From: an uncultured Eubacteriales bacterium
GTDB taxonomy: Bacteria; Bacillota; Clostridia; Christensenellales; Aristaeellaceae
Reading direction: 5' to 3'
Length of the DNA stretch: 64,000 nucleotides
NCBI GenBank assembly: GCA_902785105.1
Contig: CACZXF010000043.1
Location: forward strand, 20,580 to 84,579
Position 1 is the stretch's first letter, and every line of letters begins with the position of its first letter. Of the stretch, positions 1,545 through 25,024 are shown piece by piece. The translations under genes and the position numbers were made by a program. A model generated the notes under the pieces. It made no database searches. It saw only the letters and a list, made by a program, of their open reading frames with translations, and had not been told where the DNA came from.

Positions 1545-1545
1545 G

Positions 1546-2235
1546 GTGAATAAATACGTTGAAAGGCTGTACAACGGCCTCGTCAAGGAAAATCCCACGC
1601 TGATACTGATGCTGGGCATGTGCCCCACCCTGGCCGTGTCCACAAGGGCCATGAACGGCATCGGCATGGGCCTGTCCACCACGGCGGTGCTCATCCTCTC
1701 CAACGTGGTGATCTCCCTGCTTCGCAAGGTCATCCCGGACGACGTGCGCCTGCCCGCCTACATCGTCATCGTGGCCTCGCTGGTCACGGTGACGGAGCTG
1801 CTCATCGAGGCGTATCTGCCCTCGCTGTACGCGGCGCTGGGCATCTACATCCCGCTGATCGTCGTCAACTGCATCATCCTGGGCCGCGCCGAGGCCTACG
1901 CCAACAAGCACGACCCGGTGCTGTCCTTCTTCGATGGCCTGGGCATGGGCCTGGGCTTCACCATCGCCCTGACCCTGGCCGGCATGATCCGCGAGTTCCT
2001 GGGCAACGGCACCTTCTTTGGGATGCAGGCGCTGCCCAAGGGCATCGACCCCATCGGCATCTTCGTGCAGCCTCCGGGAGCCTTCCTGGTCATCGCGCTG
2101 ATCATCGCCATCCAAAATGCCATCGGCATTAAGACCCGCCAGCGCAGCCTCGTCGAGGACGGCTGCGACGGCATCTGCGCCAACTGCTCCGCCCGGTGCG
2201 GCAAGGGCCAGCCTGAGGAGGTGAGCGCCAAGTGA
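1546..2235 (+). CDS. rnfE: Rnf complex subunit E
   Basis: GTG start 8 nt after GAAGGGAGG. Polytopic, with LGMCPTLAVS and GIYIPLIVVNCIILGRAE motifs typical of RnfE/NqrD. Sits between rnfD/G and rnfA. Confidence 0.85.
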   Translation: MNKYVERLYNGLVKENPTLILMLGMCPTLAVSTRAMNGIGMGLSTTAVLILSNVVISLLRKVIPDDVRLPAYIVIVASLVTVTELLIEAYLPSLYAALGIYIPLIVVNCIILGRAEAYANKHDPVLSFFDGLGMGLGFTIALTLAGMIREFLGNGTFFGMQALPKGIDPIGIFVQPPGAFLVIALIIAIQNAIGIKTRQRSLVEDGCDGICANCSARCGKGQPEEVSAK

Positions 2236-2813
2236 GTACCAATCTGATTTTGATCGTGGTCACCGCCGCGCTGATCAACAACGTGGTGCTGAGCCAGTTC
2301 CTGGGCATCTGCTCCTTCCTGGGCGTGTCCAAGCAGATGAAGGCCTCCTTCTCGCTGGGCATGGCGGTCATATTCGTCATCACCATCGCCAGCGCCGTGG
2401 CCAGCCTGCTGTATGACTTTGTATTGAAGCCCCTGGGCCTTGACTACATGAAGACCATCATCTTCATATTGGTCATCGCCGCGCTGGTGCAGATCGTGGA
2501 GATGTTCCTGAAAAAGACCTCCCCCGCCATCTACACCGCCCTGGGCATCTACCTGCCCCTCATCACCACCAACTGCGCGGTGCTGGGCGTGGCGCTGACC
2601 AACGTGCAGAACGGCTATAACTTCATCGAATCCGTGCTGTGCGGCTTCGGCACGGCGGTGGGCTACACCCTCGCCATCGTGCTGCTGGCCTCCATCCGCA
2701 GCCGCATCCACGAGGAGGACATCCCCGCCCCCCTGCGCGGCGCGCCCATCGTGCTGATCTCCGCGGCCCTCATGTCCATCGCGTTCATGGGCTTCTCGGG
2801 CCTGTCGTTCTAA
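2232..2813 (+). CDS. rnfA: Rnf complex subunit A
   Basis: Start overlaps the rnfE stop. Six-TM protein with GIYLPLITTNCAVLG, typical of RnfA/NqrE. Confidence 0.85.
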   Translation: MSTNLILIVVTAALINNVVLSQFLGICSFLGVSKQMKASFSLGMAVIFVITIASAVASLLYDFVLKPLGLDYMKTIIFILVIAALVQIVEMFLKKTSPAIYTALGIYLPLITTNCAVLGVALTNVQNGYNFIESVLCGFGTAVGYTLAIVLLASIRSRIHEEDIPAPLRGAPIVLISAALMSIAFMGFSGLSF

Positions 2814-2825
2814 GGGGGTGGCCGT

Positions 2826-3647
2826 ATGCAGATCATTGTCATCACCACGGTGGTCATCGCCATCGTCGGCCTCATCGTCGGCGCGGGGCTGGTGTTCACC
2901 GGCAAGAAGTTCTATGTGGAAGTGGATGAGCGGGAGGCCGCCGTGCGCGAATGCCTCCCCGGCAACAACTGCGGCGCCTGCGGCTATGCCGGCTGCGACG
3001 CCATGGCCGGCGCCATCGCCAAAGGCGAAGCGCCCGTGAACGGCTGCCCCGTGGGCGGCGCGCCCGTGGCCGAAAAGATCGGCGCGATCATGGGCGCTTC
3101 CGCCGACGCCGTGGAGCGCAACGTGGCCTTCGTTCGCTGCAAGGGCACCTGCGACGTCACCCACAATCAGGGCAACTACGTGGGCATCAAGGACTGCCGC
3201 GCCGCCGTCATGGCCGGCATCAACGTCACCGACTGCTCCTACGGCTGCCTCGGCTTCGGCTCCTGCCAGGCCGTGTGTCCCCAGCACGCCATAAGAGTGG
3301 TCAACGGCGTGGCCGTGGTCAGCCGCAAGCTCTGCGTTGGCTGCGGGCTGTGCGTCAAGACCTGCCCCCGGGGCCTCATCGAGCTGGTGCCGGAGAGCAA
3401 GCACGTCGCCGTCCAGTGCTCCAACCATGACCGGGGCCCCATGGTCAAGAAGGTCTGCTCCGCCGGCTGCATCGGCTGTATGCTCTGCGTGAAGCAGTGC
3501 GAGCATCAGGCCATCACCGTCACGAACAACCTCGCCCACGTCAATTACGCCAACTGCGCCCAGTGCGATAAGTGCGTATCCAAGTGCCCCGCCAAGGTCA
3601 TCACCCCCTCCCTCAATTTCGGGAAGGAGCAGGACGTTCCGGCGTAA
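2826..3647 (+). CDS. rnfB: Rnf complex subunit B (polyferredoxin-type)
   Basis: N-terminal TM helix, a CGACGYAGC cluster motif, then several CxxCxxCxxxCP 4Fe-4S motifs. Last gene of the rnf operon. Confidence 0.85.
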   Translation: MQIIVITTVVIAIVGLIVGAGLVFTGKKFYVEVDEREAAVRECLPGNNCGACGYAGCDAMAGAIAKGEAPVNGCPVGGAPVAEKIGAIMGASADAVERNVAFVRCKGTCDVTHNQGNYVGIKDCRAAVMAGINVTDCSYGCLGFGSCQAVCPQHAIRVVNGVAVVSRKLCVGCGLCVKTCPRGLIELVPESKHVAVQCSNHDRGPMVKKVCSAGCIGCMLCVKQCEHQAITVTNNLAHVNYANCAQCDKCVSKCPAKVITPSLNFGKEQDVPA

Positions 3648-3703: not shown

Positions 3704-3744
3704 CGCAATAAGAACAAGTTAACATCCTGTTGCCAATCTTGATG

Positions 3745-3773: not shown

Positions 3774-3810
3774 AATAATAGGATTGATTTATGGAACAGG
3801 AGGGATGCAC

Positions 3811-4050: not shown

Positions 4051-4052
4051 TT

Positions 4053-4662: not shown

Positions 4663-5943
4663 ATGGAAACCAAGCACATTCTCCGGTTTATCGGAACAGG
4701 CGCGGTGGTGATCGCGGCGGTGGTGTTGCTGGGCGGCTTCGGCGGCAACAAGCTGATGTACCACCTGCAGAACCGGGGCGACCTGGGGCCGCTTTCCCGC
4801 GAGGACATCGAGTATCTGAATGTCGATGCTCCCGCGGCCACCAGCAGGGACGGCACCATCAACGCTCAGGACTGGTCCACCGTCTACCCCGAGATCGCCG
4901 TCAGCATGGGTGACAACAGCAAAAACAGCTATGTCACCGACTATCTGGAGCAGGACCCCTATCTGGTCAACATCTACGAGGGCTACGGCTTCGCCAAGGA
5001 CTACGGCAGCGCCCGGGGCCACGAATACACCTTAGCGGACGTCCACAAGACCCAGCGTCCCCACCCCAAGGCCAACTGCCTGACCTGCAAGACCCCGAAC
5101 TTTGCCAAACTGGTGAACGATGAGGGCGTAGGCGTCTACAGCCGCCCCTTTGAAGAGGTGGAGGCGCTGATGGAGGAGAACATCTCCTGCTACACCTGCC
5201 ACGGCAACGAGGCGGGCAACGCGGGCAAGCTGGTGGTCACCCACTCCTACGTCAACAAGGCGCTGGGCGACAACGTGAACACCATCGACCCCGCCACCCT
5301 CTCCTGCGGCCAGTGCCACATCGAGTATTACTTCACCCGCGAAGACTCCGAGACCATGATGCCCTACCACAGCGTGCAGGAGATGGCCCCAGAGGCGATA
5401 CTGGCCTATTACGACGCCATCGACTTCTACGACTGGGAGCAGGAGGCCACCGGCACGAAGATGCTCAAGGCCCAGCATCCCGAAATGGAGACCTTCCTCC
5501 AGGGCAAGCACGCCGCGCTGCTGAACTGCGCCGACTGCCACATGCCCATGGAGATGTCCGACGAGGGCACCGTCTACCACAGCCACACGCTGGTTAGCCC
5601 GTTGGACAGCCCCGCGTTGCTTGAGACCTGCGCCACCTGCCACGGCGACACCGACATGACCAAGCTGGTTCGCGGCATACAGGAGCGGGTCACCAAGCGC
5701 GAGACGGAAGTTGGCAACAAGCTCTCCGACTTCAAGGACGCCCTGGCCGACGCCGTCGCCACCGGCGCGAAGTCCGAGGCCGAGCTGGACGACCTCCGCA
5801 AGCTCCACCGGGAGGCTCAGTGGTATTTCGACTTCTGCTATGTCGAGAACTCCGAGGGCGCCCACAACTCCGAGCTGTCCATGCGCTGCCTCGATACCTC
5901 CGAGGAGAAGATCAACGAGGCCATGGCCCTGCTCACCACCTGA
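4663..5943 (+). CDS. nrfA: Ammonia-forming cytochrome c nitrite reductase NrfA-type pentahaem protein, N-terminally membrane anchored
   Basis: One CLTCK (CxxCK) site plus four CxxCH sites (CYTCH, CGQCH, CADCH, CATCH). N-terminal hydrophobic helix. Followed by system II cytochrome c maturation genes. Confidence 0.8.
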   Translation: METKHILRFIGTGAVVIAAVVLLGGFGGNKLMYHLQNRGDLGPLSREDIEYLNVDAPAATSRDGTINAQDWSTVYPEIAVSMGDNSKNSYVTDYLEQDPYLVNIYEGYGFAKDYGSARGHEYTLADVHKTQRPHPKANCLTCKTPNFAKLVNDEGVGVYSRPFEEVEALMEENISCYTCHGNEAGNAGKLVVTHSYVNKALGDNVNTIDPATLSCGQCHIEYYFTREDSETMMPYHSVQEMAPEAILAYYDAIDFYDWEQEATGTKMLKAQHPEMETFLQGKHAALLNCADCHMPMEMSDEGTVYHSHTLVSPLDSPALLETCATCHGDTDMTKLVRGIQERVTKRETEVGNKLSDFKDALADAVATGAKSEAELDDLRKLHREAQWYFDFCYVENSEGAHNSELSMRCLDTSEEKINEAMALLTT

Positions 5944-6015
5944 CCCCCGCAACCCACGGCATTGGGAGGGACACAAGCCATCCCTACCCAATGCCGTTTT
6001 GTTTGAATGGGGAGA

Positions 6016-6126
6016 ACTCCCTCAGTCAGCTTCGCTGACAGCTCCCTCTAAGAGGGAGCCATAAGGCGACCTTCCAAAAGGCTCCCTCTCTGAGGGAGCT
6101 ATCACGCGAAGCGTGACTGAGGGAGT
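6016..6126. repeat. Nested-palindrome element, family A (GAGGGAG type), copy A1
   Basis: Outer inverted repeat ACTCCCTCAGTCA/TGACTGAGGGAGT encloses sub-hairpins GTCAGCttcGCTGAC and GCTCCCTCTaaGAGGGAGC. Lies in the nrfA-ccsB spacer. Confidence 0.9.
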
Positions 6127-6149
6127 CCATCCCCCAACAAGGAACCACC

Positions 6150-7427
6150 ATGACGACATTCAAAAAGCTTTGGCGCTTCCTCTCCTCGATGAAGTTTGCC
6201 ATCATACTTCTGGTGATCCTGGCGGTGGCCTGTTCCCTGGCGAGCCTGGTGACCCAGGGTCAGGACTACGCTTGGTACGCCCAGCGCTATTCCGAGCGCA
6301 CGGCGGCGCTGATCCTGGCCCTGGGACTGGACGACGCCTTCCACAGCGTCTGGTTCATCGCCATCACCGCCTTCCTGTGCATCAATTTATTATTATGCAA
6401 CGTCCTGCGCCTGCCGGGCCTCATCAGGCGCACAAAGAGCGAGTCCGACCCCGCAAAGGTCCTCGACGCCGCCGGGGACATATCCGTCGAGAACGTCCGG
6501 GACCCCGAATCGGTATTCAAGCGCCTGGGCATGAAGCCCATCAAGGTGGAGGGCCGCGAAGCCTATTTTGCCGCGAAGCACCGCGCCGGCCTCTGGGGCG
6601 CGTGGGTCTGCCATCTGGGCATATTGCTGTTGATACTGGGCTTCGGACTGGGCCAGGCGACGCAGAAGCAATACGCGGTCTACGGCGTTCCGGGCACATC
6701 GAAACCCATCGGCGACACGGAATACGCGCTGACCATCGACGACTTCCGGGTGGGCCTGCGCGAGGACGACACCGTGGAGCAGTACACCGCCGACATCACC
6801 GTCCGCGACCTCTCCGAGAAGGGCATCGGCAGCAGCGAATCTGCCTCAATCAGCGTCAACCACCCCGCCACCCTCTACGGCATGAAGTTCTACCAGAACT
6901 CCACCGGCTGGGCGGCCACAGTCCACATCACCAAGGACGGCAAACCCCTCCAGGAGGAGGTCCTCTGCGCCGGGGAATACCTGCTGGTGAAGGACAAGCC
7001 CGAGCTGGCCATCTATCTGTCCGCCTTCTATCCGGACTATGTGATGACCCCCGGCGTCGGCCCCTCCACGGCCAGCGGCGCGCTGAACAACCCGGCCTAT
7101 CTGTATCAGGTCTACTATCAGGAGCAGGTGCTGGGCATGAACATACTGATGCCCGAGGAGGAGCTGACCATCGACGAGTACACCGTCACCTTCTCCGACC
7201 CGCAGAATTACACCCTCATCCAGATCAAGCGTGACCGCTTCACCCCGCTGGCCCTGGCCGGAGGCCTCATCACGCTGCTTGGCCTGATCCTGGCGCTGTA
7301 CCTCCAGCCCGCCCGCGTCTGGGCCATACGCACGGAAAATGGCTGGACCATCCGCGGCCAGTGCCGCAAGGGCGGCGCGCTGTTCCGGGAGCGGTTCATG
7401 AAGGCAATACAAACGGAAGAGGTATAA
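6150..7427 (+). CDS. resB: Cytochrome c biogenesis protein ResB/CcsB (system II)
   Basis: N-terminus MTTFKKLWRFLSSMKFAIILL, TM helices flanking a large extracytoplasmic loop, and a C-terminal TM. Located next to ccsA. Confidence 0.8.
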   Translation: MTTFKKLWRFLSSMKFAIILLVILAVACSLASLVTQGQDYAWYAQRYSERTAALILALGLDDAFHSVWFIAITAFLCINLLLCNVLRLPGLIRRTKSESDPAKVLDAAGDISVENVRDPESVFKRLGMKPIKVEGREAYFAAKHRAGLWGAWVCHLGILLLILGFGLGQATQKQYAVYGVPGTSKPIGDTEYALTIDDFRVGLREDDTVEQYTADITVRDLSEKGIGSSESASISVNHPATLYGMKFYQNSTGWAATVHITKDGKPLQEEVLCAGEYLLVKDKPELAIYLSAFYPDYVMTPGVGPSTASGALNNPAYLYQVYYQEQVLGMNILMPEEELTIDEYTVTFSDPQNYTLIQIKRDRFTPLALAGGLITLLGLILALYLQPARVWAIRTENGWTIRGQCRKGGALFRERFMKAIQTEEV

Positions 7428-7440
7428 ACAGGGAAAGACG

Positions 7441-7552
7441 ACTCCCTCAGTCAGCTTCGCTGACAGCTCCCTCTAAGAGGGAGCCTGAAAAGCGCCCCTC
7501 CAAAAGGCTCCCTCCCAGAGGGAGCTGGCACGCGAAGCGTGACTGAGGGAGT
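7441..7552. repeat. Family A element, copy A2
   Basis: Near-identical to A1. Lies in the ccsB-ccsA spacer. Confidence 0.9.
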
Positions 7553-7590
7553 CCGTACCCCCGGCATTGCACCATTGGAGGAAAATCCAC

Positions 7591-8406
7591 ATGCTACAGG
7601 TTGAGAACACGCTGTTCACCATCGTGATGCTGCTGTACTTCGCCGCGATGATCTGCTATTTCCTGTTCATCGCCGTGAAGAAGGATGGGATGGCAAAGAC
7701 CGCGATCATCCTTCAATCGGCGGGCCTGGTGCTGCACACGGCGGCGCTGGTCTGCCGGGGCATCGGCGCGGGGCGGCTGCCGCTGACGAACCAATATGAA
7801 TTTGCCACGGCCTTCGCCTGGGGCCTGTCGCTGGTGAGCCTGATCTTCGTGATAAGGTTCAAGTTTCCGGTGCTGGGGGCCTTCGCCGCGCCGGTGACGT
7901 TCCTGGTCATCGGCTATGCGGCCATGCAGAGCAAGGAGGTCAAGGAGCTGATGCCCGCCCTGCGGAGCAACTGGCTGGGCTTCCACGTCTCCACGGCCAT
8001 CATCGCCTACGGGGCCTTTGGCGTGTCCTTCGTGCTGGGCATCATCTTCCTGCTGCGCGACCGGATGCGGGCCAGCGGCTTCCTGGACAGCCACATCCCG
8101 GACAAGGAAAAGCTGGACATCATCAGCTATCGCAGCGTCTCCCTGGGCCTGCTGTTCCTGTCCTTCACCATCATCACCGGGGCCATCTGGGCCGAGCGGG
8201 CCTGGGGCAGCTACTGGTCCTGGGACCCCAAGGAGACCTGGTCGCTGGTCACCTGGATCATCTACGCCGCCTACCTCCACCTCCGCATCCGCCGGGGCTG
8301 GCAGGGCAAAGCCGCGGCCATATTCGCCGTGGCGGGCTTCATCTGCGTCATGTTCACCTACATCGGCGTGAACACGTTCCTGCCGGGCGTACACAGCTAC
8401 GCATAA
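7591..8406 (+). CDS. ccsA: Cytochrome c biogenesis protein CcsA/ResC (haem handling)
   Basis: ATG 9 nt after GGAGG. Polytopic, with the tryptophan-rich WGSYWSWDPKETWSL (WWD) motif. Confidence 0.85.
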   Translation: MLQVENTLFTIVMLLYFAAMICYFLFIAVKKDGMAKTAIILQSAGLVLHTAALVCRGIGAGRLPLTNQYEFATAFAWGLSLVSLIFVIRFKFPVLGAFAAPVTFLVIGYAAMQSKEVKELMPALRSNWLGFHVSTAIIAYGAFGVSFVLGIIFLLRDRMRASGFLDSHIPDKEKLDIISYRSVSLGLLFLSFTIITGAIWAERAWGSYWSWDPKETWSLVTWIIYAAYLHLRIRRGWQGKAAAIFAVAGFICVMFTYIGVNTFLPGVHSYA

Positions 8407-9726: not shown

Positions 9727-11796
<2,070 letters not shown>

Positions 11797-11877
11797 AGTT
11801 GGTTGCCTACTTTCTTTAAGTCTGCGCTTGTTGAAGCGTTGCGTTTGGTTCTGTGAATTGCCAGTCAAGGCGGAAAT

Positions 11878-11995
11878 CCACCTCATCCGGCGCTTCGCGC
11901 CACCTTCCCCTCAAGGGGAAGGCTTTTGGTTACCGGCAACCTAAGCCCCTGCCTTCCCCTTGAGGGGAAGGTGCCCGTGAGGGCGGATGAGGTGG
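11878..11995. repeat. Nested-palindrome element, family B (GGGGAAGG type), copy B1
   Basis: CCACCTCATCCG ... CGGATGAGGTGG encloses two CCTTCCCCTcaaGGGGAAGG hairpins. Lies inside the rpsG-fusA spacer. Confidence 0.9.
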
Positions 11996-12101
11996 CCTGC
12001 CGCTGACCTTTGGCATTTTATTTTAACACTGTCCCTTTACATACTTCAGCACGCAAACCTGAAAGTTGCGTGCTGAAGAAGAAGGTGTGATGTTTTTGTT
12101 T

Positions 12102-12572
12102 TTACCACCTGTAATGGGCGAAAGCCTTGTTGGCCTCGGCCATCTTGTGCATATCCTCGCGGCGCTTCACGGCGTTGCCGGTGTTGTTGGCAGCGTCCAT
12201 GATCTCGCCGGCCAGGCGGTCCGCCATGGAGCGCTCGCCGCGCTTGCGGGCGAACATGACCAGCCAGCGGAGGGCCAGGGTCTGACGGCGCTCGGGACGG
12301 ATCTCGATAGGCACCTGATAGGTGGAACCGCCGACACGACGGGCCTTGACCTCCATCGCGGGCATGATGTTCGCGATGGCCTGGTTGAAGACCTCCATGG
12401 CCTCCTTGCCGGTCTTGGCGGCGACGGTTTCAAAAGCATCGTAGCAGACGGCCTGCGCGACGCCGCGCTTGCCATCATACATCACCTGGTTGATCAGCTT
12501 GGTGATGACAGTCGTTCCATATACAGGATCCGGAAGCACTTCGCGCTTCGGGATAAATCCACGTCTGGGCAT
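12102..12572 (-). CDS. rpsG: 30S ribosomal protein S7
   Basis: [19 protein letters not shown] ... AFAHYRW; 156 aa. Confidence 0.95.
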
Positions 12573-13764: not shown

Positions 13765-13799
13765 ATAATAGCATTATCCATGAAAAGAGGATGGTAAAT

Positions 13800-16850: not shown

Positions 16851-16879
16851 TTGCTTAAAGGACAAAAAAGTTATATAAT
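16851..16879 (+). promoter_or_regulatory. Sigma-A type promoter of the nine-gene flavinylation/Rnf-like operon
   Basis: TTGCTT, 17 nt, TATAAT; about 30 nt upstream of the 16911 start. Confidence 0.55.
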
Positions 16880-16910
16880 AGAACTGATGATGATTAAAGG
16901 GGTTAAAAGG

Positions 16911-17321
16911 ATGAGGCGAAGGGGCGTCATGATCGCGCTGCTGCTGGCGCTTTGCCTGCTGGGCGGATGCCGGGGAAGTGCGCCGAAGGGCGACACGCAA
17001 GTGCTGCTGGACGGCAGGCCCTGGGACGGCGCGAAGCCCGGCGAAGGCGGCGACCTGCGGGTCTACGTGACGCTGGATGGCGCGGAGCTCATCGACCTGC
17101 CCTTTGACGAGCCTCACACCGTCGAGATCATACAACCCGACGGCGCGAAGAATACCGTCTCCCTCACCGGCGAGGCCGTCACCATGGCAAGTGCCAACTG
17201 CGAGAATCAGGACTGCGTCCACATGGGCGAGGTCACCCGTGACAACCTGGAGCTTCGCGTGATGGGCGGCTTCATCATCTGCCTGCCCCACAAGGTTTCG
17301 GTGGAGGTGCGGGGCAGTTAA
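16911..17321 (+). CDS. NusG-domain-II-like lipoprotein (paralogue 1)
   Basis: Lipobox LLGGC. C-terminal CENQDCVHMGEVTRDN ... IICLPHKV matches the 24558 paralogue. The track start at 16695 is rejected. Confidence 0.7.
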   Translation: MRRRGVMIALLLALCLLGGCRGSAPKGDTQVLLDGRPWDGAKPGEGGDLRVYVTLDGAELIDLPFDEPHTVEIIQPDGAKNTVSLTGEAVTMASANCENQDCVHMGEVTRDNLELRVMGGFIICLPHKVSVEVRGS

Positions 17322-17352
17322 ATATTTACTTCCTGTATATGGAGGCAATCGT

Positions 17353-18054
17353 TTGAATTCAACTGCGCAAAGGGTCGGCCGGTTTGGCCTGCTGGCGGCG
17401 CTGTCGCTGGTGCTGGGCTACTTTGACCGGGCGATACCCATTTCCATGATATTGAGCGGCGCGGTGCCCGGCATCAAGCTGGGGCTGGCGAACACGGTGC
17501 TGCTGTACGGCGTGTACATGCTGGACTGGCGGGGCTGCGTGGCGCTGATGCTGACCAAGGTCTTTCTGTCCGGCTTCATGTTCGGCTCACTGAGCGCCAT
17601 CATCTACAGTCTGGCCGGCGGCATACTGAGCCTCGCGGTGATGCTCCTGATCCGTAAAAAACCCGCTGCCGGGGCCCTGGGCATCGCCGGGCTGGCTGCA
17701 TTGAGCGATGGATTATTGTTATGGCGCAACCCCACGCCGAAGGGGCAGATGCTCTGGTGCGTGATATTGATCGGGCTGGCCTGCGCGGCTGCGATAGCGG
17801 TGTTTATATTCATCCGCAAAAATCCCGCCTTCGGGGTCATGGGGACCTCCCTGGCCGGGGCCGTGGCCCACAACGTCGGCCAGATCCTCGCCGCCGCGGG
17901 AATGCTCCACACCCCTCAATTGCTCTGGACCTACCTCCCCGTGCTGATCGGCATCGGCGCGGCCGTGGGCTGCCTGACAGGCTTCGTGGCCCAGCGGGTG
18001 TTCAAGGCGCTGAAGATACCGGCGGGGATGGCTCAACCGGAAAAACAGGACTGA
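17353..18054 (+). CDS. Gx-transporter / Hpre_diP_synt_I-type polytopic membrane protein
   Basis: TTG start 7 nt after GGAGG. About 6 TM helices and Gly-rich. This family (PF07456-like) is usually adjacent to NusG_II-type genes. Confidence 0.6.
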   Translation: MNSTAQRVGRFGLLAALSLVLGYFDRAIPISMILSGAVPGIKLGLANTVLLYGVYMLDWRGCVALMLTKVFLSGFMFGSLSAIIYSLAGGILSLAVMLLIRKKPAAGALGIAGLAALSDGLLLWRNPTPKGQMLWCVILIGLACAAAIAVFIFIRKNPAFGVMGTSLAGAVAHNVGQILAAAGMLHTPQLLWTYLPVLIGIGAAVGCLTGFVAQRVFKALKIPAGMAQPEKQD

Positions 18055-18069
18055 TTTAAGGAGATATTG

Positions 18070-19062
18070 ATGAAAAACACGCGCTTCCTGGCGATATTGA
18101 CCGCGCTGCTGATGCTGCTTTCGACCCTTCCGGGCTGTGCCGCGCCGGAGAAGGAGAAGAAGTCCTCTGTGGGCTTCTATCTGGACACGGTGATCACGCT
18201 GACGGCCTATGTGGACGATCAGGCGGTGCTGGAGGACGCGCTGAAGGAGTGCGGGCGCTATGAGCGCATGCTCTCCCGCACCATCGAGGGCAGCGACGTC
18301 TGGAACATCAACCACGCGAACGGTCAGCCGGTGGAGGTCTCCGACGACACCCTGGCCATACTGGACGTGGCCCGGCAGGTCAGTGAGCGCTCCGAAGGGA
18401 CCTTTGACGTGACCATCGCCCCGGTCTCCACCATGTGGGACTTCACCTCCGGCGCGGCGGTAGTGCCCGACGCCAAGGACATCGAAGCGGCGGCCGAGCG
18501 GGTGGATTATTCCCAGGTCACCATAGACGGCAACTCTGTAACCCTCCCCGCGGGCATGATGATCGACCTGGGCGGCATCGCCAAGGGCTACATCGCCGAC
18601 GCGGTGAAGGGGTATCTTATGGAGCGGGGCGTGGAGAGCGCCATACTCTCCTTCGGGGGCAACATCGTCGCCATCGGCTTGAAGCCCGACGGTTCCCCCT
18701 GGAAGGTGGGCATACAGGATATCGACGAGCCCACGGGCAACTACATGCTCGTGGCACTGAACCGGGGCGGCTCCACCGTCACCAGCGGCATCTACGAGCG
18801 CGGCTTCGAGGCCGACGGTGTGTACTACCACCACATTCTCGACGCCAAGACCGGCTGGCCGGTTCAAAATGAGCTGGCCTCCGTCACCATATTCTCCGAA
18901 AGCTCCATGTGGGGCGACGCCCTGGCCACCGCCGCCTTCGCCCTCGGCACCGAGGCGGGCACGGCGCTCATCGAGTCGCTGCCCGACATCGAGGCGGTTT
19001 TCATCGCGAGGGACAGGAGCGTCAGCTATACCTCCGGAGCGAAGGACTATATGGTCGAATGA
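18070..19062 (+). CDS. apbE: ApbE-type FAD:protein FMN transferase lipoprotein
   Basis: Lipobox LPGC. Contains DLGGIAKGYIAD, TSGIYERGF and HHILDAKTGWP, typical of ApbE/Ftp. Confidence 0.85.
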   Translation: MKNTRFLAILTALLMLLSTLPGCAAPEKEKKSSVGFYLDTVITLTAYVDDQAVLEDALKECGRYERMLSRTIEGSDVWNINHANGQPVEVSDDTLAILDVARQVSERSEGTFDVTIAPVSTMWDFTSGAAVVPDAKDIEAAAERVDYSQVTIDGNSVTLPAGMMIDLGGIAKGYIADAVKGYLMERGVESAILSFGGNIVAIGLKPDGSPWKVGIQDIDEPTGNYMLVALNRGGSTVTSGIYERGFEADGVYYHHILDAKTGWPVQNELASVTIFSESSMWGDALATAAFALGTEAGTALIESLPDIEAVFIARDRSVSYTSGAKDYMVE

Positions 19063-19107
19063 ACAGGGATATTCAATATCAACTATATAATAAAGGGGGA
19101 AGGGCAA

Positions 19108-21057
19108 GTGAGCAAGAAACTGCCCACATGGGTTGCGGTCCCGGCGGTGTGCGTAGCTTCGGCACTGCTGGCGACGGGTGTGAACGGCGCGACCCACGAC
19201 CAGATCGACCGGCAGGCGGCGAAGCGTGAAAACGCGCCGCTGGCCGGGGTGATCGAGGCGGCTCAGTTTGAGCCGACAGAGCTGAAGGAGAGCCGCTACA
19301 GCGTGGAGAACGTCTACACGGCGCTGAACGACGCGGGCGAAAAGGTGGGCTACGTGGGCAAGACCACGGTGTCCGGCTACGGCGGGCCCATCGAGGTCAC
19401 CGCGGGCGTGGACAACGCGGGCGCGATCACCGGCGTGAACGTCGGCGGCGACACCTTCAACGAGACGCCCGGCCTGGGCGGGCTGACCCGCGAGCCGAGG
19501 TTCGCGAAGCAGTTCGTCGGCAAGGCGGCGGGCGTAGACCTCAACAGCGAGGAGAACACCGAGGGCGTGGACGGCATCGCCGGGGCCACCATCTCCTCCC
19601 GGGGCGTGCTGGGCGGCGTCAACAACATCGTCAGCTATGTCAGCGCCGCTGAGCTGGGCATCCTCCAGGAGAAGGAGGAGGTCTACATGGGGCCGACGGT
19701 CTCCGCCACGGAGAAGGGCTTCGCCGGGGACGTCACCGTCACCGCGGGGCTGGACGACGAGGGCGCCATCGTCTATCTGGACATCCAGACGCCCGACGAG
19801 ACCGAGGGCCTGGGCAAGCGCTGCTCCGAGCCTGAGTTCATCAATCAGTTCATCGGCAAGAAGGGACCCTTCGCCTACGGCGAGGACGGCGTCGAGGCCA
19901 TCTCCGGCGCGTCCTTCACCTCCACAGCCGTCATCAACGCGCTGAACACCATCGCCAATGGCGGTGGCACGGCCTCCGAGGGCCCGCTGTCCGCGACGGT
20001 GCAGGGCTTCGGCGGCGATGTGACCGTCAATGTCATGCTCAATCCCGATAACTCCATCGGCGCGCTGTCCATCGACACGCCCAATGAGACCGAGGGGCTG
20101 GGCAAGCGCACCTCCGAACCCGAGTTCACCGACCAGTTCATCGGCAAGCATGCCCCCTTCACCTATGGCGAGGACGGCATCGAGGCCGTGACCGGGGCCA
20201 CCGTGACCTCCACTGCCGTCATCAACGCGCTGAACGACCTCGTCCCCGCCGGTGAAGCCGCTCCCGCCTCCGCGGAAGCCGCCGCGCCCGCCGAGGAGGC
20301 CGCGCCCGCTGAGACTGAAGCGCCCGTGGAGGAAGCCGCGCCTGTTGAAGAGGCCGCGCCCGTCGCCGGGACGACTGTCGAGGACATGATGCGCGAGCGC
20401 CCGGTAGACTCCGCCCTGCAAAATGCCGCTGCTGCCGTGGCAGGGAACGTCGTCAAGGGCAGTCTGGACAGCATGATGCGCCAGCGCCCCGACGAGGCCG
20501 CGCTGGAAGCCGCTAAGGCCGAACCGGCGGCGGAAGAAGCGCCTGTCGAAGCGGTTGAGACTGACCCCAGCCGCCTAATGCGTCAGCGTCTCGCCGAGAG
20601 TGCCTTTATCAAGGCTGAACCGGCGGTTGAGGAAGAGACTGTCGTCGAGGCTGAACCGGTCGTTGAAGAAGATACCGAACCGGCGGCGGAAGAAGCGCCT
20701 GTAGCCGAAGCGGTTGAGACTGACCCCAGCCGCCTGATGCGTCAGCGTCCCGCCGAGAGTGCTTTTGTCAAGGCTGAACCGGCGGTCGAAGAAGAGACTG
20801 TCATTGAGGCTGAACCGACGGCGGAAGAAGAAGCCGTTGTCGAGGCTGAATCGGCGGCCGAGGAAGAAGCCGCTGCCGAGGCTGAACCGGAGGCCGAGGA
20901 AGTGCCCGTGGCCGAAGCGGCCCAGGGCGACGCCAGCCGTTTGATGCGGGAGCGTCCCGCGGCGCAGACTGCCATCGAAGCGGCGGAGGCCGAAGCGGAA
21001 GCGCCCAATATTGACAAGTATATGCGCCCCAGACCCGCGACTGTTGCGGGGGCGTAA
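19108..21057 (+). CDS. Membrane-anchored protein with three tandem FMN_bind (RnfG/NqrC-like) domains and a repetitive acidic C-terminal tail
   Basis: N-terminal anchor. Three domains each keep a flavinylation-type motif (IAGATISS, ISGASFTS, VTGATVTS). Domains 2 and 3 are close duplicates. The tail carries MR(Q/E)RP motifs. Confidence 0.8.
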   Translation: MSKKLPTWVAVPAVCVASALLATGVNGATHDQIDRQAAKRENAPLAGVIEAAQFEPTELKESRYSVENVYTALNDAGEKVGYVGKTTVSGYGGPIEVTAGVDNAGAITGVNVGGDTFNETPGLGGLTREPRFAKQFVGKAAGVDLNSEENTEGVDGIAGATISSRGVLGGVNNIVSYVSAAELGILQEKEEVYMGPTVSATEKGFAGDVTVTAGLDDEGAIVYLDIQTPDETEGLGKRCSEPEFINQFIGKKGPFAYGEDGVEAISGASFTSTAVINALNTIANGGGTASEGPLSATVQGFGGDVTVNVMLNPDNSIGALSIDTPNETEGLGKRTSEPEFTDQFIGKHAPFTYGEDGIEAVTGATVTSTAVINALNDLVPAGEAAPASAEAAAPAEEAAPAETEAPVEEAAPVEEAAPVAGTTVEDMMRERPVDSALQNAAAAVAGNVVKGSLDSMMRQRPDEAALEAAKAEPAAEEAPVEAVETDPSRLMRQRLAESAFIKAEPAVEEETVVEAEPVVEEDTEPAAEEAPVAEAVETDPSRLMRQRPAESAFVKAEPAVEEETVIEAEPTAEEEAVVEAESAAEEEAAAEAEPEAEEVPVAEAAQGDASRLMRERPAAQTAIEAAEAEAEAPNIDKYMRPRPATVAGA

Positions 21058-21102
21058 CCGTTGTAATAACCGATATATGATACAACACTGGAGGTGCTGA
21101 AA

Positions 21103-22452
21103 TTGTCGAGTAACAATACCTTTCGCGGGGGCGTGCATCCGCTGCACGGCGCTCACGAGGGAAAATCGCCGACGCGGGGCCAGGCGGTGATCGATTACAC
21201 CGCCGAAACCGTGACCATCATGATGGGCATGCACCTGGGCGCACCCAGCACCCCGACGGTGCAGGTGGGCGACCACGTGAAGCTGGGCCAGCAGATCGCG
21301 GACCCGGTGGGCTTCCTGGGCCTGCCGGTGCACGCCAGCGTGTCCGGCGAGGTCATCGCCGTGGGCCCGGTGCAGTCGGTGATGAATCCCGCGGCCATGG
21401 CCGTGACCATCAAAAATGACTTCAAGGACGAGTGGGTGGACACGCTGGAGCCCCTGGGCGACGTGGAGACCTGCGACCCGACTAAAATCGTGCCCGCCAT
21501 CAAGGCCGCCGGCGTCTGCGGCCAGGGCGGCGCGTCCTTCCCGACGCACGTCAAATTCGCGGTGAAGGAAGGGCAGTATTGCGATACCATCATCGTCAAC
21601 GGCGCGGAGTGCGAGACCCATCTGACCTGCGACCACCGGCTGATGCTGGAGCAGAGCAAGCGCATCGTGGACGGCCTCCGGGCGGCCATGCGGGCGCTGG
21701 ACGTGAAAAAGGGCGTCATCGCCATCGAGGACAACAAGCCCGACGCCATCGAAGCCATGCGCAAGGCGGCGGAGGGCCGGGACGGCGTGGAGATCATGCC
21801 GCTGATGACCAAATACCCCCAGGGCGGTGAGAAACAGCTCATCCAGGTGGTGACGGGCCGCGAGGTGCCCACCAAGAAGCTGCCGCTGGATGTACACGTC
21901 ATCGTGCTGAACGTTTCCACCGCCAAGTCCATCGCCGACGCGGTCATCGAGGGCAAGCCCCTCATCACCCGCATTACCACCGTCACCGGCCACGTGGTGC
22001 GTCCCTGCAACTTCCGGGTGCGCGTGGGCACCATGGTGGACGAGCTCATCGCCGAATGCGGGGGCTACAGCATCCCCGAGGACCAGGTGGGCAAGGTCGT
22101 CATGGGCGGCGCGATGACCGGCTTCCCCTGCCCGAACACCACGCATATCCCGATTGCCAAGGCCAACGGCGGCGTGGTGGTCTACAGCGAGGAGGAATCG
22201 AAGGACTACGACGAGGACCCCTGCATCCGCTGCGGCCGCTGCGTGGAGGCCTGCCCCATCGGGCTGAATCCCTACAAGCTCAAGTATTTCTGCGATGCCG
22301 GCGACATGAAGCGGGCAGGCGAGTGGTGCGTGATGGACTGCGTGGTCTGCGGAAGTTGCTCCTATATCTGCCCCGCCCACCGCAGGCTCACATCGTCGTT
22401 CAAGGCCATGAAGGACAAGATCGCCGCGGAGGCGAGGAAAGGAAAGGGGTAA
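21103..22452 (+). CDS. rnfC: Rnf complex subunit C-type protein
   Basis: TTG start 8 nt after TGGAGG (the track start GTG 21094 overlaps the SD). Contains FRGGVHP, GGASFPT, CIRCGRCVEACP and CVVCGSCSYICP. Confidence 0.85.
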   Translation: MSSNNTFRGGVHPLHGAHEGKSPTRGQAVIDYTAETVTIMMGMHLGAPSTPTVQVGDHVKLGQQIADPVGFLGLPVHASVSGEVIAVGPVQSVMNPAAMAVTIKNDFKDEWVDTLEPLGDVETCDPTKIVPAIKAAGVCGQGGASFPTHVKFAVKEGQYCDTIIVNGAECETHLTCDHRLMLEQSKRIVDGLRAAMRALDVKKGVIAIEDNKPDAIEAMRKAAEGRDGVEIMPLMTKYPQGGEKQLIQVVTGREVPTKKLPLDVHVIVLNVSTAKSIADAVIEGKPLITRITTVTGHVVRPCNFRVRVGTMVDELIAECGGYSIPEDQVGKVVMGGAMTGFPCPNTTHIPIAKANGGVVVYSEEESKDYDEDPCIRCGRCVEACPIGLNPYKLKYFCDAGDMKRAGEWCVMDCVVCGSCSYICPAHRRLTSSFKAMKDKIAAEARKGKG

Positions 22453-22458
22453 TCGGTC

Positions 22459-23391
22459 ATGAAGCTTCATCTTTCTCCGGCGCCCCACGTGCATAGTCCT
22501 CAAACCACGCGGGCGCTGATGCTCAACGTGCTGGTGGCGCTGATCCCCTGCGCCATCGCTGGCGTCTATCTCTTCGGCTTCAGCGCGATACTGCTGATGC
22601 TGGTGTCCGTCCTCTCCGCCGTGGCGGGGGAGGCGATCATACAGAAGATTTTGGGGCAGAAGTCCCGGATCAACGATATGTCCGCCGCCGTCACCGGCCT
22701 GATACTGGCGCTGAACCTGTCCCCCCGGACGCCCTGGTGGGTGGCGATGGCGGGCAGCCTGTTCGCCGTCATCGTCGTCAAGGGCCTGTTCGGCGGGCTG
22801 GGCGACAACTTCCTGAACCCGGCGCTGGCCGCCCGCGCCTTCCTGCTGGTGTGCTGGCCCCGCTATCTGACCACCTGGGCCGCGCCCCTGGCCGCCGACG
22901 CGGTGGCCGGCGCGACGCCCTTAGCCAATCCCGCGGGCTACACGCTGGGGCAGCTCTTCCTGGGCAACATCCCCGGCTCCATCGGTGAGGTCTGCAAGCC
23001 CGCCATACTGCTGGGCCTGGTGTACCTGCTGTTTACCAAGACCATCACCTGGCAGATCCCCGTGTACATGACCGCCTTCACCGGCGTGTTCTGCGCGCTG
23101 ATGGGCGGCGGGTTCGTGGAGTCCATGCTCTCCGGCGGCGTGCTGTTCGCGGCGGTGTTCATGGCGACGGATTACGTCACCTGCCCCATGTCCACGAAGG
23201 GACAGATCGTCTACGCGGCGGGCATCGGCCTCATCATCGCGCTGATCCGCAAGTTCGGCCTGTATCCCGAGGGCGTCACCTTCGCCATACTGCTGATGAA
23301 CGTCGCCACCCCCATCATCGACCGCTTCACCAAGCGCCGCGTCTACGGCTACGAGGACAACAAGAAGAAGGAGGCGAAGGCAAATGGATAA
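22459..23391 (+). CDS. rnfD: Rnf complex subunit D-type protein
   Basis: Starts MKLHLSPAPHVHSPQTT. Polytopic, with the DAVAGATPL flavinylation-type motif. Confidence 0.85.
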   Translation: MKLHLSPAPHVHSPQTTRALMLNVLVALIPCAIAGVYLFGFSAILLMLVSVLSAVAGEAIIQKILGQKSRINDMSAAVTGLILALNLSPRTPWWVAMAGSLFAVIVVKGLFGGLGDNFLNPALAARAFLLVCWPRYLTTWAAPLAADAVAGATPLANPAGYTLGQLFLGNIPGSIGEVCKPAILLGLVYLLFTKTITWQIPVYMTAFTGVFCALMGGGFVESMLSGGVLFAAVFMATDYVTCPMSTKGQIVYAAGIGLIIALIRKFGLYPEGVTFAILLMNVATPIIDRFTKRRVYGYEDNKKKEAKANG

Positions 23392-23983
23392 CAGGACCTC
23401 CAACGGCATCCTTGCCGGCAATCCGCTGTTCCGTTTGGGTCTGGGCGTTTGCCCGGCGCTGGCGGTGACCACCTGCGCCTCGGCGGCCCTGGGCATGGGC
23501 GTCGCCACGGCCTGCGTGCTGGTGTGCAGCAGCCTCGTTGCTTTCGTATTGGGCAAGGTCGTCTCCGAAAAGGGCACCGTGGCGACCTGGATCATGGTCA
23601 CGGCCTGCTTCGCCACGGTGGCGCAGTTCATATTGAAGGGCTGGTTCCCGGAACTGGCTTCTGAGCTGGGCATATTTGTGCCGCTGATCGCCGTCAGCTC
23701 CCTCCTGCTGAGCCGGGCGGATTTCGCGTCCAACAACAGCCTCGGCGCGGCCATGGGCGACGCCGTGGGCATGGGCATCGGCTATATCATCGCCATGACC
23801 CTCGTGGGCATCGTCCGCGAAATTCTGGGCCAGGGCACGCTGTTCGGCTCCGACCTGCTGCCCTTCACCCCCATGACCCTGGTGGCCCTCCCTGCCGGCG
23901 GCTTCATCGTGCTGGGCCTGCTGATGGGCTGCTGGAACGCCATCACGGCGAAAAAGAACGGGAAGGAGGAGACTCAGGCATGA
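23384..23983 (+). CDS. rnfE: Rnf complex subunit E-type protein
   Basis: Overlaps the rnfD end. LGVCPALAVT and GIFVPLIAVSSLLLSRA motifs. Confidence 0.8.
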   Translation: MDNRTSNGILAGNPLFRLGLGVCPALAVTTCASAALGMGVATACVLVCSSLVAFVLGKVVSEKGTVATWIMVTACFATVAQFILKGWFPELASELGIFVPLIAVSSLLLSRADFASNNSLGAAMGDAVGMGIGYIIAMTLVGIVREILGQGTLFGSDLLPFTPMTLVALPAGGFIVLGLLMGCWNAITAKKNGKEETQA

Positions 23984-24561
23984 CCGATATTTCCCGCATT
24001 CTGCTCTTCATGGTGGGCTGCATATTCACCCACAACGTGGTGTTCGATAGGATGCTGGGCGTCCACGACGCGGGCCAGCCCCGGCGCTTCGAGACCTCCG
24101 TCATCTACGGCGTGGCGGTCTGCATCGTCATGACCCTCTCCGCCGTGTGCTGCTGGGCCGTCCAGACCCTGCTGCTGGCCCCCATGCACATGGAATACTT
24201 GCAGATCATCGCCTTCTCCCTCGTGGTGGTGGCAGTGACTGCGCTGACCCAGCTCTGCGTGAGCAAGGTAAAACCCGAATGGATGGAGACCTTGGATAAC
24301 TGCCTCATGCCCATTGCCGCCAACTGCGCCGTGCTGGGCATCGCCATCGTCAACGCCGAGGCGGGGTATACCTTCGGCTACGCGCTGCTGAGCGGCCTCT
24401 GCGGCGGGCTGGGCTTCCTGCTGGCCATCGTGCTGCTGGCGGGCGTGTATGAAAAGCTGGAGTTCGCCAAGGTCCCCGAGCCCTTCAAGGGCATGCCCAT
24501 TGCCGTCATCTCCGCCGGTCTCATCGCCCTGGCCTTCATCGGCTTCAAGGGCATCGCATGA
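23980..24561 (+). CDS. rnfA: Rnf complex subunit A-type protein
   Basis: ATGA overlap with the preceding gene. Six TM helices; MPIAANCAVLGIA motif. Confidence 0.8.
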   Translation: MTDISRILLFMVGCIFTHNVVFDRMLGVHDAGQPRRFETSVIYGVAVCIVMTLSAVCCWAVQTLLLAPMHMEYLQIIAFSLVVVAVTALTQLCVSKVKPEWMETLDNCLMPIAANCAVLGIAIVNAEAGYTFGYALLSGLCGGLGFLLAIVLLAGVYEKLEFAKVPEPFKGMPIAVISAGLIALAFIGFKGIA

Positions 24562-24986
24562 GGCGGATATTCGCGGCGGCGCTGGCAGTCCTGCTGCTGA
24601 CCGCCGCCGCTGTGGCCGAACCCACCGCTGAACCGTCCGTGGAGCCGTCCGCATCGCCAAAGCCCGCCAAGGGCTATGTGCTGGTGCAGACCGCCACGCA
24701 GCTGGGCTGGCTCCCCCTCCCCGAGGAGGGCGAGCAGTCCGTCCCCATCAAGCAGATCCTCCCCGACGGGACCGAGGCGGAAAACATCGTCCATCTCACC
24801 CCCGAGGGCGTCTGGATGGAGGACTCCACCTGCGAAAACCACGATTGCGTCAATCAGGGCGAGGTCACGCTGGACAACAAGGCCGACAGGATACTCGGCA
24901 ACATGATCATCTGCCTCCCCAATCAGGTCATGCTGGCACTGTATACCCCGGAGGAAGTGCTGAAGCTGATGAAGGAGGAGCAATAG
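24558..24986 (+). CDS. NusG-domain-II-like secreted protein (paralogue 2)
   Basis: ATGA overlap with the rnfA stop. Has a signal peptide. CENHDCVNQGEVTLDN ... IICLPNQV parallels the 16911 protein. Confidence 0.7.
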   Translation: MRRIFAAALAVLLLTAAAVAEPTAEPSVEPSASPKPAKGYVLVQTATQLGWLPLPEEGEQSVPIKQILPDGTEAENIVHLTPEGVWMEDSTCENHDCVNQGEVTLDNKADRILGNMIICLPNQVMLALYTPEEVLKLMKEEQ

Positions 24987-25024
24987 CACAAAGGCGGGCA
25001 CTCGGATGAGTGCCCGCCTTTGTG
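24987..25024 (+). terminator. Strong stem-loop closing the nine-gene operon
   Basis: CACAAAGGCGGGCACTC-ggat-GAGTGCCCGCCTTTGTG immediately after the stop. There is no clear T tract. Confidence 0.55.

Follow-up and report, generated by a model that had tools for sequence, protein, structure and literature searches.

The nine-gene operon described here (plus strand, 16911-24986) lies in a 64,000-nucleotide (nt; 64-kb) stretch of contig CACZXF010000043.1 from an uncultured Eubacteriales bacterium. This stretch is called the window below, coordinates are positions in it, and the genes of the operon are numbered g1 to g9 in order. We found that the operon joins a set of flavin-trafficking genes to an Rnf complex that has no RnfB. 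It probably encodes a self-contained, quinone-independent means of electron export, a "half-Rnf" that would pass electrons from NADH to a chain of extracytosolic flavin mononucleotide (FMN) groups. A first-pass annotation of the sequence had suggested an outward flavin conduit and not a ferredoxin:NAD+ oxidoreductase. That suggestion is supported by the absence of RnfB, the loss of ligands to the iron-sulfur centre of RnfA and RnfE, an inverted pattern of conservation among the subunits and the presence, adjoining the operon in relatives, of a reductase like urocanate reductase (UrdA); the direction of flow and the acceptor are the parts that we infer.

As we envisage it, the system has two modules. 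In the first, made up of the EetA-like g1, the EetB-like g2, the ApbE of g3 and probably g9, flavin adenine dinucleotide (FAD) would be exported through EetB with EetA-like helpers, and, on the outer side of the membrane, ApbE would attach FMN covalently to RnfD and to each FMN_bind domain of g4, three in all. In the second, the half-Rnf, RnfC would oxidise NADH by way of its FMN and two [4Fe-4S] clusters, the flavins of RnfD would carry the electrons across the membrane, and the RnfG-like domain 1 of g4 would take them up outside and hand them on through two further FMN domains to extracytosolic acceptors. In relatives, the acceptor may be a flavinylated lipoprotein resembling urocanate and fumarate reductases. 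The ferredoxin branch, from RnfB to the RnfA/E centre, would have been discarded, with RnfA and RnfE serving as structural partners and possibly in an ion-channel role. The system would amount to the NADH half of an Rnf complex in reverse mode, minus the ferredoxin half. Because a multi-FMN protein titrates at an E0' (standard potential) of -184 mV (PMC10339131), the transfer from NADH to FMN would be downhill.

Gene content and layout

The genes of the operon, with the two parts of g4 given separately, are:

16911..17321, plus strand: g1, EetA-family (NusG_II / DUF1312) lipoprotein of 136 amino acids, lipobox LLGGC (PF07009, 1.2e-14, 54.8 bits)
17353..18054, plus strand: g2, EetB-family polytopic membrane protein (Hpre_diP_synt_I, "Gx"; PF07456, 3.4e-30, 105.5 bits, cut-off 30)
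18067..19062, plus strand: g3, lipoprotein ApbE, FAD:protein FMN transferase, lipobox LPGC (PF02424, 2.2e-84, full-length)
19108..20253, plus strand: g4, N-terminal 382 amino acids, with a transmembrane (TM) anchor, an RnfG-like FMN_bind domain and two "wire" FMN_bind domains (FMN_bind in three stretches, 1.5e-42)
20254..21057, plus strand: g4, C-terminal tail, residues 383-649 (267 amino acids), acidic and predicted to be disordered
21094..22452, plus strand: g5, RnfC, cytoplasmic subunit for NAD(H), FMN and two [4Fe-4S] clusters (RnfC_N, Complex1_51K, SLBB, Fer4)
22459..23391, plus strand: g6, RnfD, stand-alone, 310 amino acids (PF03116, NQR2_RnfD_RnfE, 1.4e-105, its only domain)
23384..23983, plus strand: g7, divergent RnfE (PF02508, Rnf-Nqr, 3.8e-45, against 5e-67 for the canonical copy)
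23980..24561, plus strand: g8, divergent RnfA (PF02508, Rnf-Nqr)
24558..24986, plus strand: g9, second EetA-family (NusG_II) protein, exported or anchored (PF07009, 4.3e-10, 40.1 bits)

All nine open reading frames (ORFs) are present where the first-pass annotation had placed them. They are tightly packed, and their G+C content at third codon positions (GC3), 0.69-0.91, is of the coding type. Gaps of 31, 12, 45, 36 and 6 nt separate g1 to g6 and are followed by overlaps of 8, 4 and 4 nt. Three overlaps had been claimed, all of the ATGA type; there are three, but only two are ATGA, the RnfD/E overlap being ATGGATAA. Pfam bears out every domain call that had been made, and RnfC, RnfD and the RnfG part of g4 also pass the NCBIfam cut-offs. 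The lipoboxes and membrane anchors can be read in the N-termini as they had been described.

RnfB-less operons in relatives

Related loci (L001-L097) were fetched for comparison, together with homologous proteins (P0177 and P0241-P0360). The nine-gene order recurs with unrelated flanks in L001/2/8, L005/6, L007, L009/L093, L013 and L097, which we call group A, and L003/4 represents a group A variant without g1 and ApbE. This recurrence, far beyond chance, confirms that the gene association noted at first sight is conserved. RnfB is absent from the operon and from the surrounding 10 kb in all eight orthologous loci or lineages, so that its omission from the window's accessory set, which had also been reported, is a property of the clade.

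Two further groups possess RnfB. The order in group B is G-C-D-E-A-B, and it is this group whose RnfC comes closest to the accessory one. One of its members, L053, reads NusG_II-EetB-ApbE-(2xFMN)G-C-D-E-A-B; judged from its gene order, it looks like the ancestral state plus RnfB. Group C has the order C-D-G-E-A-B that is ordinary in Oscillospiraceae and is shared by the canonical copy in the window.

Group A operons were found in at least about 4 of 185,579 species representatives, all of them metagenome-assembled genomes of uncultured Clostridia from the rumen or gut; this count is a lower bound, since group A RnfAs diverge fast. The top match to RnfA in the genome collection has 64% identity. 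A search with RnfA is an unreliable guide to the size of the family, as it places accessory RnfAs behind canonical ones in rank; g9 serves better as a marker, albeit one that is not specific to RnfCDEA.

Erosion of the iron-sulfur site in RnfA and RnfE

The accessory RnfC and RnfD are bona fide members of their families. RnfC scores 462.6 bits against TIGR01945 (cut-off 246), and its translation contains the GGASFPT sequence and both 4Fe-4S motifs (CxxCxxCxxxCP) previously read there. RnfD scores 291.5 bits against TIGR01946 (cut-off 207) and keeps the threonine of its covalent-FMN site (AGAT, T153; nt 22915-22917), a position that is Ser or Thr in 21 of 21 aligned RnfDs and Thr in 20 of them. 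RnfE and RnfA, on the other hand, fall below their cut-offs (150.7 bits against 213.4 for TIGR01948, and 150.5 against 229.3 for TIGR01943, respectively).

In Rnf complexes of solved structure, the ligands of an intramembrane Fe-S centre are Cys25 and Cys113 of RnfA and Cys26 and Cys109 of RnfE. Electrons reach this centre from RnfB, by way of its mobile ferredoxin domain, and the ligand region has been described as strictly conserved across Rnf and Nqr (PMC9588780; PMC12174285). Two of these four invariant cysteines are gone from the accessory pair. The divergent RnfE keeps the first (C23) and has Ser106 (nt 23699-23701) aligned with Cys109 of 7ZC6_E; the divergent RnfA keeps the second (C116) and has His29 (nt 24064-24066), next to a one-residue deletion, opposite Cys25 of 7ZC6_A. 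Elsewhere in group A, the second RnfE cysteine is lost in three of seven lineages, and one lineage has lost the second RnfA cysteine too. The first RnfA position is occupied by H, G, C, V, T, S or E across the clade, which rules out His29 as a substitute Fe-S ligand. All four ligands are retained by the canonical copy in the window and by the aligned group B and C operons (13 of 13); a count over all RnfB-containing operons examined gives 19 of 19. Further, the first RnfA motif, CPF[LM]GV, is degenerate in the relatives of the accessory RnfA (at least 44% identity) and kept by all others among the top 120 homologues.

The conservation of the subunits is also inverted. Mean pairwise identities in group A are 84% for RnfC, 71% for RnfD, 55% for RnfE and 56% for RnfA; the corresponding values are 58%, 57%, 70% and 75% in group B and 52%, 58%, 64% and 69% in group C. 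RnfA and RnfE are thus the fastest-evolving subunits in the RnfB-less clade and the slowest in operons that contain RnfB, and RnfC is the most conserved subunit of the former. This pattern suggests that the path from RnfB to RnfA/E no longer serves as an electron route in the RnfB-less clade and that the route through RnfC, RnfD and RnfG is under strong constraint.

The window does contain one RnfB, in a separate operon whose D-G fusion and RnfB had been recognised in the earlier annotation and are confirmed here:

39..3647, plus strand: canonical rnfD-G fusion, rnfE, rnfA and rnfB (Pfam; all four ligand cysteines intact)

The canonical rnfC presumably lies 5' of the window; the syntenic loci L088 and L095 include it. 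One might therefore regard the accessory operon as an ordinary ferredoxin:NAD+ Rnf paralogue that is supplied with the canonical RnfB in trans, its extra FMN domains branching off to the side in the way of the "bifurcated" model (Meheust et al.). In favour of this view are the presence of a canonical RnfB gene in this genome, the existence of RnfB-bearing sister operons and a published interpretation along these lines of the multi-flavinylated RnfGs of complete RNF clusters (PMC8238504). Yet only in the accessory clade have the ligands of the very centre reduced by RnfB been lost or become degenerate, both RnfA and RnfE fall short of the NCBIfam cut-offs, and relative to RnfC these subunits evolve faster by about 28 identity points here and slower by 12-17 points in operons with RnfB. 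In the face of these observations, we consider a borrowed RnfB very unlikely.

Nor is the operon a decaying duplicate. Its closest relative is L097, with which it shares 89-97% amino-acid identity except in g1 and in the unalignable tail of g4. The ratio of nonsynonymous to synonymous substitution rates (dN/dS) in this comparison is 0.07-0.30 for all nine genes, which are thus under purifying selection, and hence we regard them as functional. The ratio is 0.07 for RnfC, 0.085 for RnfE, 0.20 for RnfA and 0.27 for g1.

A related proposal would make EetA, EetB, ApbE, g4 and g9 the functional unit, working with the canonical Rnf, and the accessory RnfCDEA a dispensable or degenerating duplicate. 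The divergence of RnfA and RnfE is in keeping with this idea, as are cassettes that lack RnfCDEA (L090-92 and L095) and the L087 locus, where the tail of g4 runs into g9. It accords poorly with the strong conservation of RnfC, which is the best conserved protein of the operon, and with the low dN/dS of RnfE and RnfA. The four Rnf ORFs are moreover intact, with their translational coupling conserved, in eight lineages, and the tail-bearing type of g4 is accompanied by RnfCDEA everywhere but in the single L087 fusion. This proposal, too, has in our opinion little chance of being correct.

Whether ions are coupled in Rnf and Nqr at the RnfA/E cluster or in RnfD is still debated. The half-Rnf appears to be a natural dissection of the complex, in which C, D and G have been kept and RnfB and the A/E centre lost, so that the ion-coupling site becomes directly testable. 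The accessory complex might itself be an energy-conserving variant that pumps Na+ or H+ through RnfD or a remodelled RnfA/E, in which case it would be a respiratory complex and not a redox-balancing vent. RnfD is well conserved, RnfA and RnfE are kept under purifying selection, and electron transfer from NADH to fumarate, urocanate or nitrite yields ample free energy; one published model, besides, puts the Na+ path in RnfD (PMC9588780). In another, Na+ transport is tied to the changing redox state of the RnfA/E cluster (PMC12174285), which is eroded here. We judge energy conservation of this kind to be unlikely.

The multi-FMN protein and its tail

The product of g4 is an RnfG with additions. 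Its residues 13-179 score 149 bits against the RnfG model (TIGR01947; cut-off 102) and match RnfG in the structures 7ZC6 (7ZC6_G, 5.7e-13) and 9ERI. The three FMN_bind domains announced for it are indeed accompanied by flavinylation sites (AGAT161, SGAS269 and TGAT365), all of them conserved, and residues 1-382 were modelled with confidence by AlphaFold2 (AF2; pLDDT, the predicted score on the local distance difference test, about 70-93). Domains 2 and 3 share 62% identity with one another but only about 39% with domain 1. The FMN_bind domains that precede the nitrite reductase NrfA in fusions of relatives are of their subfamily and show 59-62% identity to them. Orthologues of g4 have two, three or four such domains. 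With more than one FMN_bind domain, each bearing a Dxx[S/T]GA[S/T]-like site, an N-terminal TM anchor and an ApbE gene immediately upstream, the protein has the defining traits of the multi-flavinylated extracytosolic proteins.

The 267-residue tail is of a different nature. It contains 66 acidic and 20 basic residues, its pLDDT in the AF2 model is below 50, and the motif (S)R(L)MRxR[P/L], or RLMRxRP, occurs in it six times, starting at nt 20389, 20476, 20578, 20737, 20944 and 21022; a peptide carrying the motif reads GDASRLMRQRPAESAF. Over 78 copies from 17 orthologues, the consensus is G-D-A-S-R-L-M-R-x-R-P-A-F, with Arg at +2 in 100% of copies, Arg or Lys at +4 in 99% and Pro at +5 in 98%. 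The copies number 3-11 per protein at a spacing of 24-35 residues, and 8-13 residues usually separate the last one from the C-terminus. Every group A orthologue carries the motif. Save for the L087 fusion, it was found nowhere else in the window, in the fetched loci or in the group B RnfGs, and the same fusion is the sole case of a tail-bearing g4 type without RnfCDEA. The tail is presumably situated outside the cytosol and might be a docking element.

The L087 fusion gene (10001-12433; P0177) joins in frame a five-site multi-FMN protein, a five-motif tail and a g9-type NusG_II domain, so that a physical link between g4 and g9 exists in one lineage or more. EetB and the reductase are still encoded at this locus, and the absence of rnfCDEA looks like the outcome of a deletion of these genes from between g4 and g9. 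An SH3_3 gene lies 3' of the fusion gene. Both neighbours of the operon in the window likewise encode exported SH3b-domain proteins: that upstream (13791-15551) has a long TNDPFGTG-type repeat region, and that downstream (25189-26433, minus strand) a Phage_lysozyme2 domain. The notion that such proteins bind the Arg/Pro motif of the tail is not supported, as neighbours of this type occur only in the window and in L087.

Genes for flavin export and attachment

The two proteins that had been called NusG-II-like do belong to PF07009 (NusG_II, formerly DUF1312). They are better named EetA-family proteins, this family being labelled EetA in Data Set S1 of a published survey (PMC9973259). By their sequences and surroundings, g1, g2 and g3 are the known EetA/EetB/ApbE module, and g9 is a second member of the EetA family. 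EetB (PF07456) resembles the S subunit of energy-coupling factor (ECF) transporters and, by genetic evidence, is needed in Listeria both to export FAD and for the ApbE-like FmnB to flavinylate PplA; eetB is found beside apbE in 2,169 genomes, eetA in 3,328 genomes and Rnf genes in 572 Clostridia (PMC9973259). In a Listeria ΔeetA strain, a phenotype in extracellular electron transfer (EET) is absent. The product of g2 has at least five hydrophobic segments, is 70-85% identical across orthologous operons and is encoded directly 5' of the ApbE gene. By analogy with its Listeria homologue, we take it to be the ECF-S-like subunit of a predicted FAD exporter, and the earlier supposition that this "Gx" protein supplies flavin to the outer face agrees with the published experiments on EetB (PMC9973259). 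No gene for ECF-T or ECF-A (FmnA, EcfA/A') was found in the operon or among the Pfam-scanned ORFs of the window, those past about 48 kb being unscanned. ECF modules are often shared and encoded elsewhere, and missing partners of this kind are compatible with a function in FAD export. The likely start of g3 is the ATG at 18070; its product scores below the NCBIfam equivalog cut-off for the E. coli type, as is expected for a distant ApbE.

The second EetA-family protein, g9, is conserved far above g1 or the adjacent RnfA. Its best 120 homologues (P0241-P0360) are 62-98% identical, and a 51-sequence alignment of the best homologues has 41 invariant columns, three of which are cysteines (C92, C97 and C119). 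In a family without known function, conservation of this degree implies a specific, constrained interaction. Modelled by AF2 (pLDDT 82), g9 can be overlaid on NusG domain II and on two DUF1312 structures from structural genomics, 4OBI and 3LD7. Beyond bearing out the folds of g9 and g4 (DUF1312; three FMN_bind domains; a disordered tail), structure prediction gave no functional clue.

Although g9 occupies the position of RnfB in the operon, it is ruled out as a substitute for that subunit, being exported or anchored outside and occurring also in EetA-EetB-ApbE loci that have the reductase and no RnfCDEA. Because it is found with them there, g9 appears to go functionally with the flavinylation cassette and the reductase, and not specifically with RnfCDEA. 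Cassettes of EetA, EetB, ApbE and g9 without RnfCDEA are present in L090-92 and L095/96. In L090-L092 (9663-10004), the order is reductase / EetA-EetB-ApbE-DUF1622-g9, with a small DUF1622 membrane protein in the place of g4 and RnfCDEA.

Candidate acceptors and the direction of flow

The reductase of the relatives is a lipoprotein of 815-950 amino acids that has a FAD_binding_2 domain as well as two flavinylatable FMN_bind domains. Identity between loci is 81-91% in the catalytic part, and the closest relatives of solved structure are the urocanate reductase UrdA and the flavocytochrome c3 (Fcc3) fumarate reductases. It immediately adjoins the cassette in the group A lineages L003, L013 and L009/L093, and it also stands beside cassettes without RnfCDEA (L087, L090-92 and L095/96).

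In the present genome, a candidate acceptor, by analogy with syntenic loci, is an NrfA encoded directly 3' of the canonical rnf operon and 11 kb upstream of the accessory one:

4663..8406, plus strand: TM-anchored pentahaem NrfA (4663-5943), ResB (6150-7427) and CcsA (7567-8406), assigned from Pfam and haem motifs

The window contains neither NrfH nor a second ORF with multiple CxxCH motifs. The NrfA encoded at this position in L088, L089 and L095, which are syntenic, bears one to four N-terminal FMN_bind domains, and these fusions suggest a flavin-fed, quinol-independent nitrite reduction that would be linked to Rnf. Between rnfB and nrfA (3730-4370), the window has an antitoxin-like ORF and a ParE toxin gene (PF05016), where the relatives have nothing. 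The ParE gene has a GC3 of 0.54 against about 0.9 for its neighbours, which suggests a recent insertion.

Electrons might also run inward through the half-Rnf, from an extracytosolic donor (reduced flavins or a reversed dehydrogenase) along the FMN chain and RnfD to NAD+ at RnfC. Electron transfer in Rnf is reversible (PMC12174285), and sequence fixes no direction. The enzymes associated with the operon in relatives are nonetheless of the reductase type (the UrdA/Fcc3 family and NrfA), and FMN groups at about -184 mV would be poor donors to NAD+ (-320 mV) unless energy were put in; the putative coupling site is degraded. Inward flow thus strikes us as improbable.

Several points weigh against outward export by the half-Rnf as drawn above. 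No gene for a UrdA-like reductase lies within the 64-kb window, and the acceptor here is therefore not adjacent. One or two of the ligand cysteines are conserved in most members of the clade, so that some metal site is possible; RnfA and RnfE are still under purifying selection, and the model leaves their role unexplained. The EetA-EetB-ApbE cassette and g9 also occur without RnfCDEA, which shows that this reductase can also work with other membrane complexes, probably the canonical Rnf, and g4 might also dock on the canonical Rnf. Finally, the outward direction and the ion coupling are features that we infer.

With these reservations, we put forward a more detailed version of electron export by the half-Rnf, as a tentative proposal. 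The complex would be an RnfC-RnfD-RnfG(xFMN) NADH:extracytosolic-flavoprotein oxidoreductase without RnfB and the RnfA/E centre, one that takes the place of Ndh2 and quinone in quinone-poor Clostridia. Its RLMRxRP tail might dock the UrdA-like flavoprotein, possibly NrfA, or g9.

Comparison with known systems

The Rnf complex itself (RnfCDGEAB; 7ZC6, 8AHX and 9ERI) is the nearest point of reference. RnfC, RnfD and domain 1 of g4 (as RnfG) have direct counterparts in it, RnfE and RnfA are homologues with six TM segments, the sites for covalent FMN persist on RnfD and RnfG, and a gene for ApbE stands with the others. Unlike that complex, the operon has no RnfB and lacks two of the four cysteines of the centre; its RnfA and RnfE lie below the family cut-offs and evolve the fastest, its RnfG is extended by two FMN_bind domains and the motif tail, and its order is G-C-D-E-A.

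The EET locus of Listeria monocytogenes (EetA, EetB, FmnA, FmnB/ApbE, PplA, Ndh2 and DmkA/B) shares with the operon the EetA, EetB and ApbE families and a membrane-tethered multi-FMN_bind protein. The logic would also be the same, namely to export FAD, flavinylate and export electrons from NADH, as far as the genes alone tell in the present case. The membrane step differs: it is assigned to RnfC/D/E/A here and to Ndh2 and demethylmenaquinone in Listeria. The operon has neither quinone genes nor ECF-T (FmnA), possesses a second EetA paralogue and anchors its flavoprotein by a TM segment, with a repeat-motif tail, whereas the anchor in Listeria is a lipid.

The two-subunit NQR/RNF-like systems (Meheust et al. 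2021; Huang et al. 2024), which occur mainly in Actinobacteria and the Candidate Phyla Radiation, have likewise been proposed to be one-way conduits from NAD(P)H to extracytosolic FMN that descend from Rnf/Nqr and have lost the second transmembrane path. They consist of an RnfD-like domain fused to a PF00175 NAD-binding domain and an RnfG-like subunit, and they lack RnfC, RnfA, RnfE and the flavinylation site of RnfD, all of which the present operon keeps.

RNF clusters with multi-flavinylated RnfG, among them the RnfG-like multi-FMN and multi-haem proteins of Christensenellales (Meheust et al. 2021), also have extra FMN_bind domains and predicted alternative extracytosolic acceptors. The FMN_bind-NrfA fusions beside rnf in L088, L089 and L095 are related to them. 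Such clusters are defined by RnfB (K03616) and read as bifurcating from a complete Rnf, whereas the operon is RnfB-less and its centre degraded.

A precedent for the loss of RnfB is the Na+-translocating NADH:quinone oxidoreductase (Na+-NQR; NqrA-F), an Rnf derivative in which rnfB was lost after duplication of the operon; the homologues D/B, E/D, A/E and G/C are common to both. Na+-NQR put NqrF in the place of RnfB, kept a [2Fe-2S] centre, has an NqrA without cofactors and reduces quinone. The operon described here has no substitute for RnfB and an eroded centre, and the cofactors of its RnfC are retained.

The two-subunit one-way systems and the roles of EetA, EetB and ApbE are already known, and multi-flavinylated RnfGs with the idea of alternative acceptors have been published (PMC8238504). 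In open-access papers and bioRxiv, we found no description of an RnfB-less RnfCDEA, of its ligand loss, of the tail motif or of a flavinylated coupling between Rnf and NrfA. The main survey called clusters RNF only if RnfB (K03616) was present (PMC8238504), and the RnfB-less class would for that reason have been missed as RNF. If our reading is correct, it suggests how strictly fermentative Clostridia of the gut and rumen that lack a quinone pool could vent NADH electrons to extracytosolic flavin reductases, and it would extend flavin-based electron export of the Listeria type to another membrane engine. The tail motif and the strongly conserved g9, moreover, offer handles on the function of the widespread EetA/DUF1312 family.

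Expression signals and other features of the window

The signals that had been read at the two ends of the operon are both present:

16851..16879, plus strand: promoter-like site TTGCTT-17-TATAAT, about 30 nt 5' of the g1 start codon
24984..25027, plus strand: terminal hairpin with a 17-bp main stem, 3' of g9 (-36.3 kcal/mol, z = -8.9)

The -10 element is perfect and the -35 element weak, TTGCTT matching TTGACA at three of six positions, for which reason a consensus scan does not list the site. The hairpin lacks a clean T tract; none of 200 shuffled sequences folds as well, and transcription may terminate there. Within the operon, promoter-like matches number 4 (1.8 ± 1.4 expected from shuffling) and terminator-like ones 8 (4.8 ± 1.9), which is a modest excess. 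From this layout, g1-g9 are likely a single transcription unit.

No riboswitch or other RNA element was found by Rfam 5' of the operon, the matches in the window being a tRNA and a cobalamin riboswitch elsewhere. The latter (46037-46221; 111 bits) lies just 5' of a gene for a CbiK-type chelatase. The listed start of that ORF, at 46056, overlaps the riboswitch, and the true start must therefore be further downstream.

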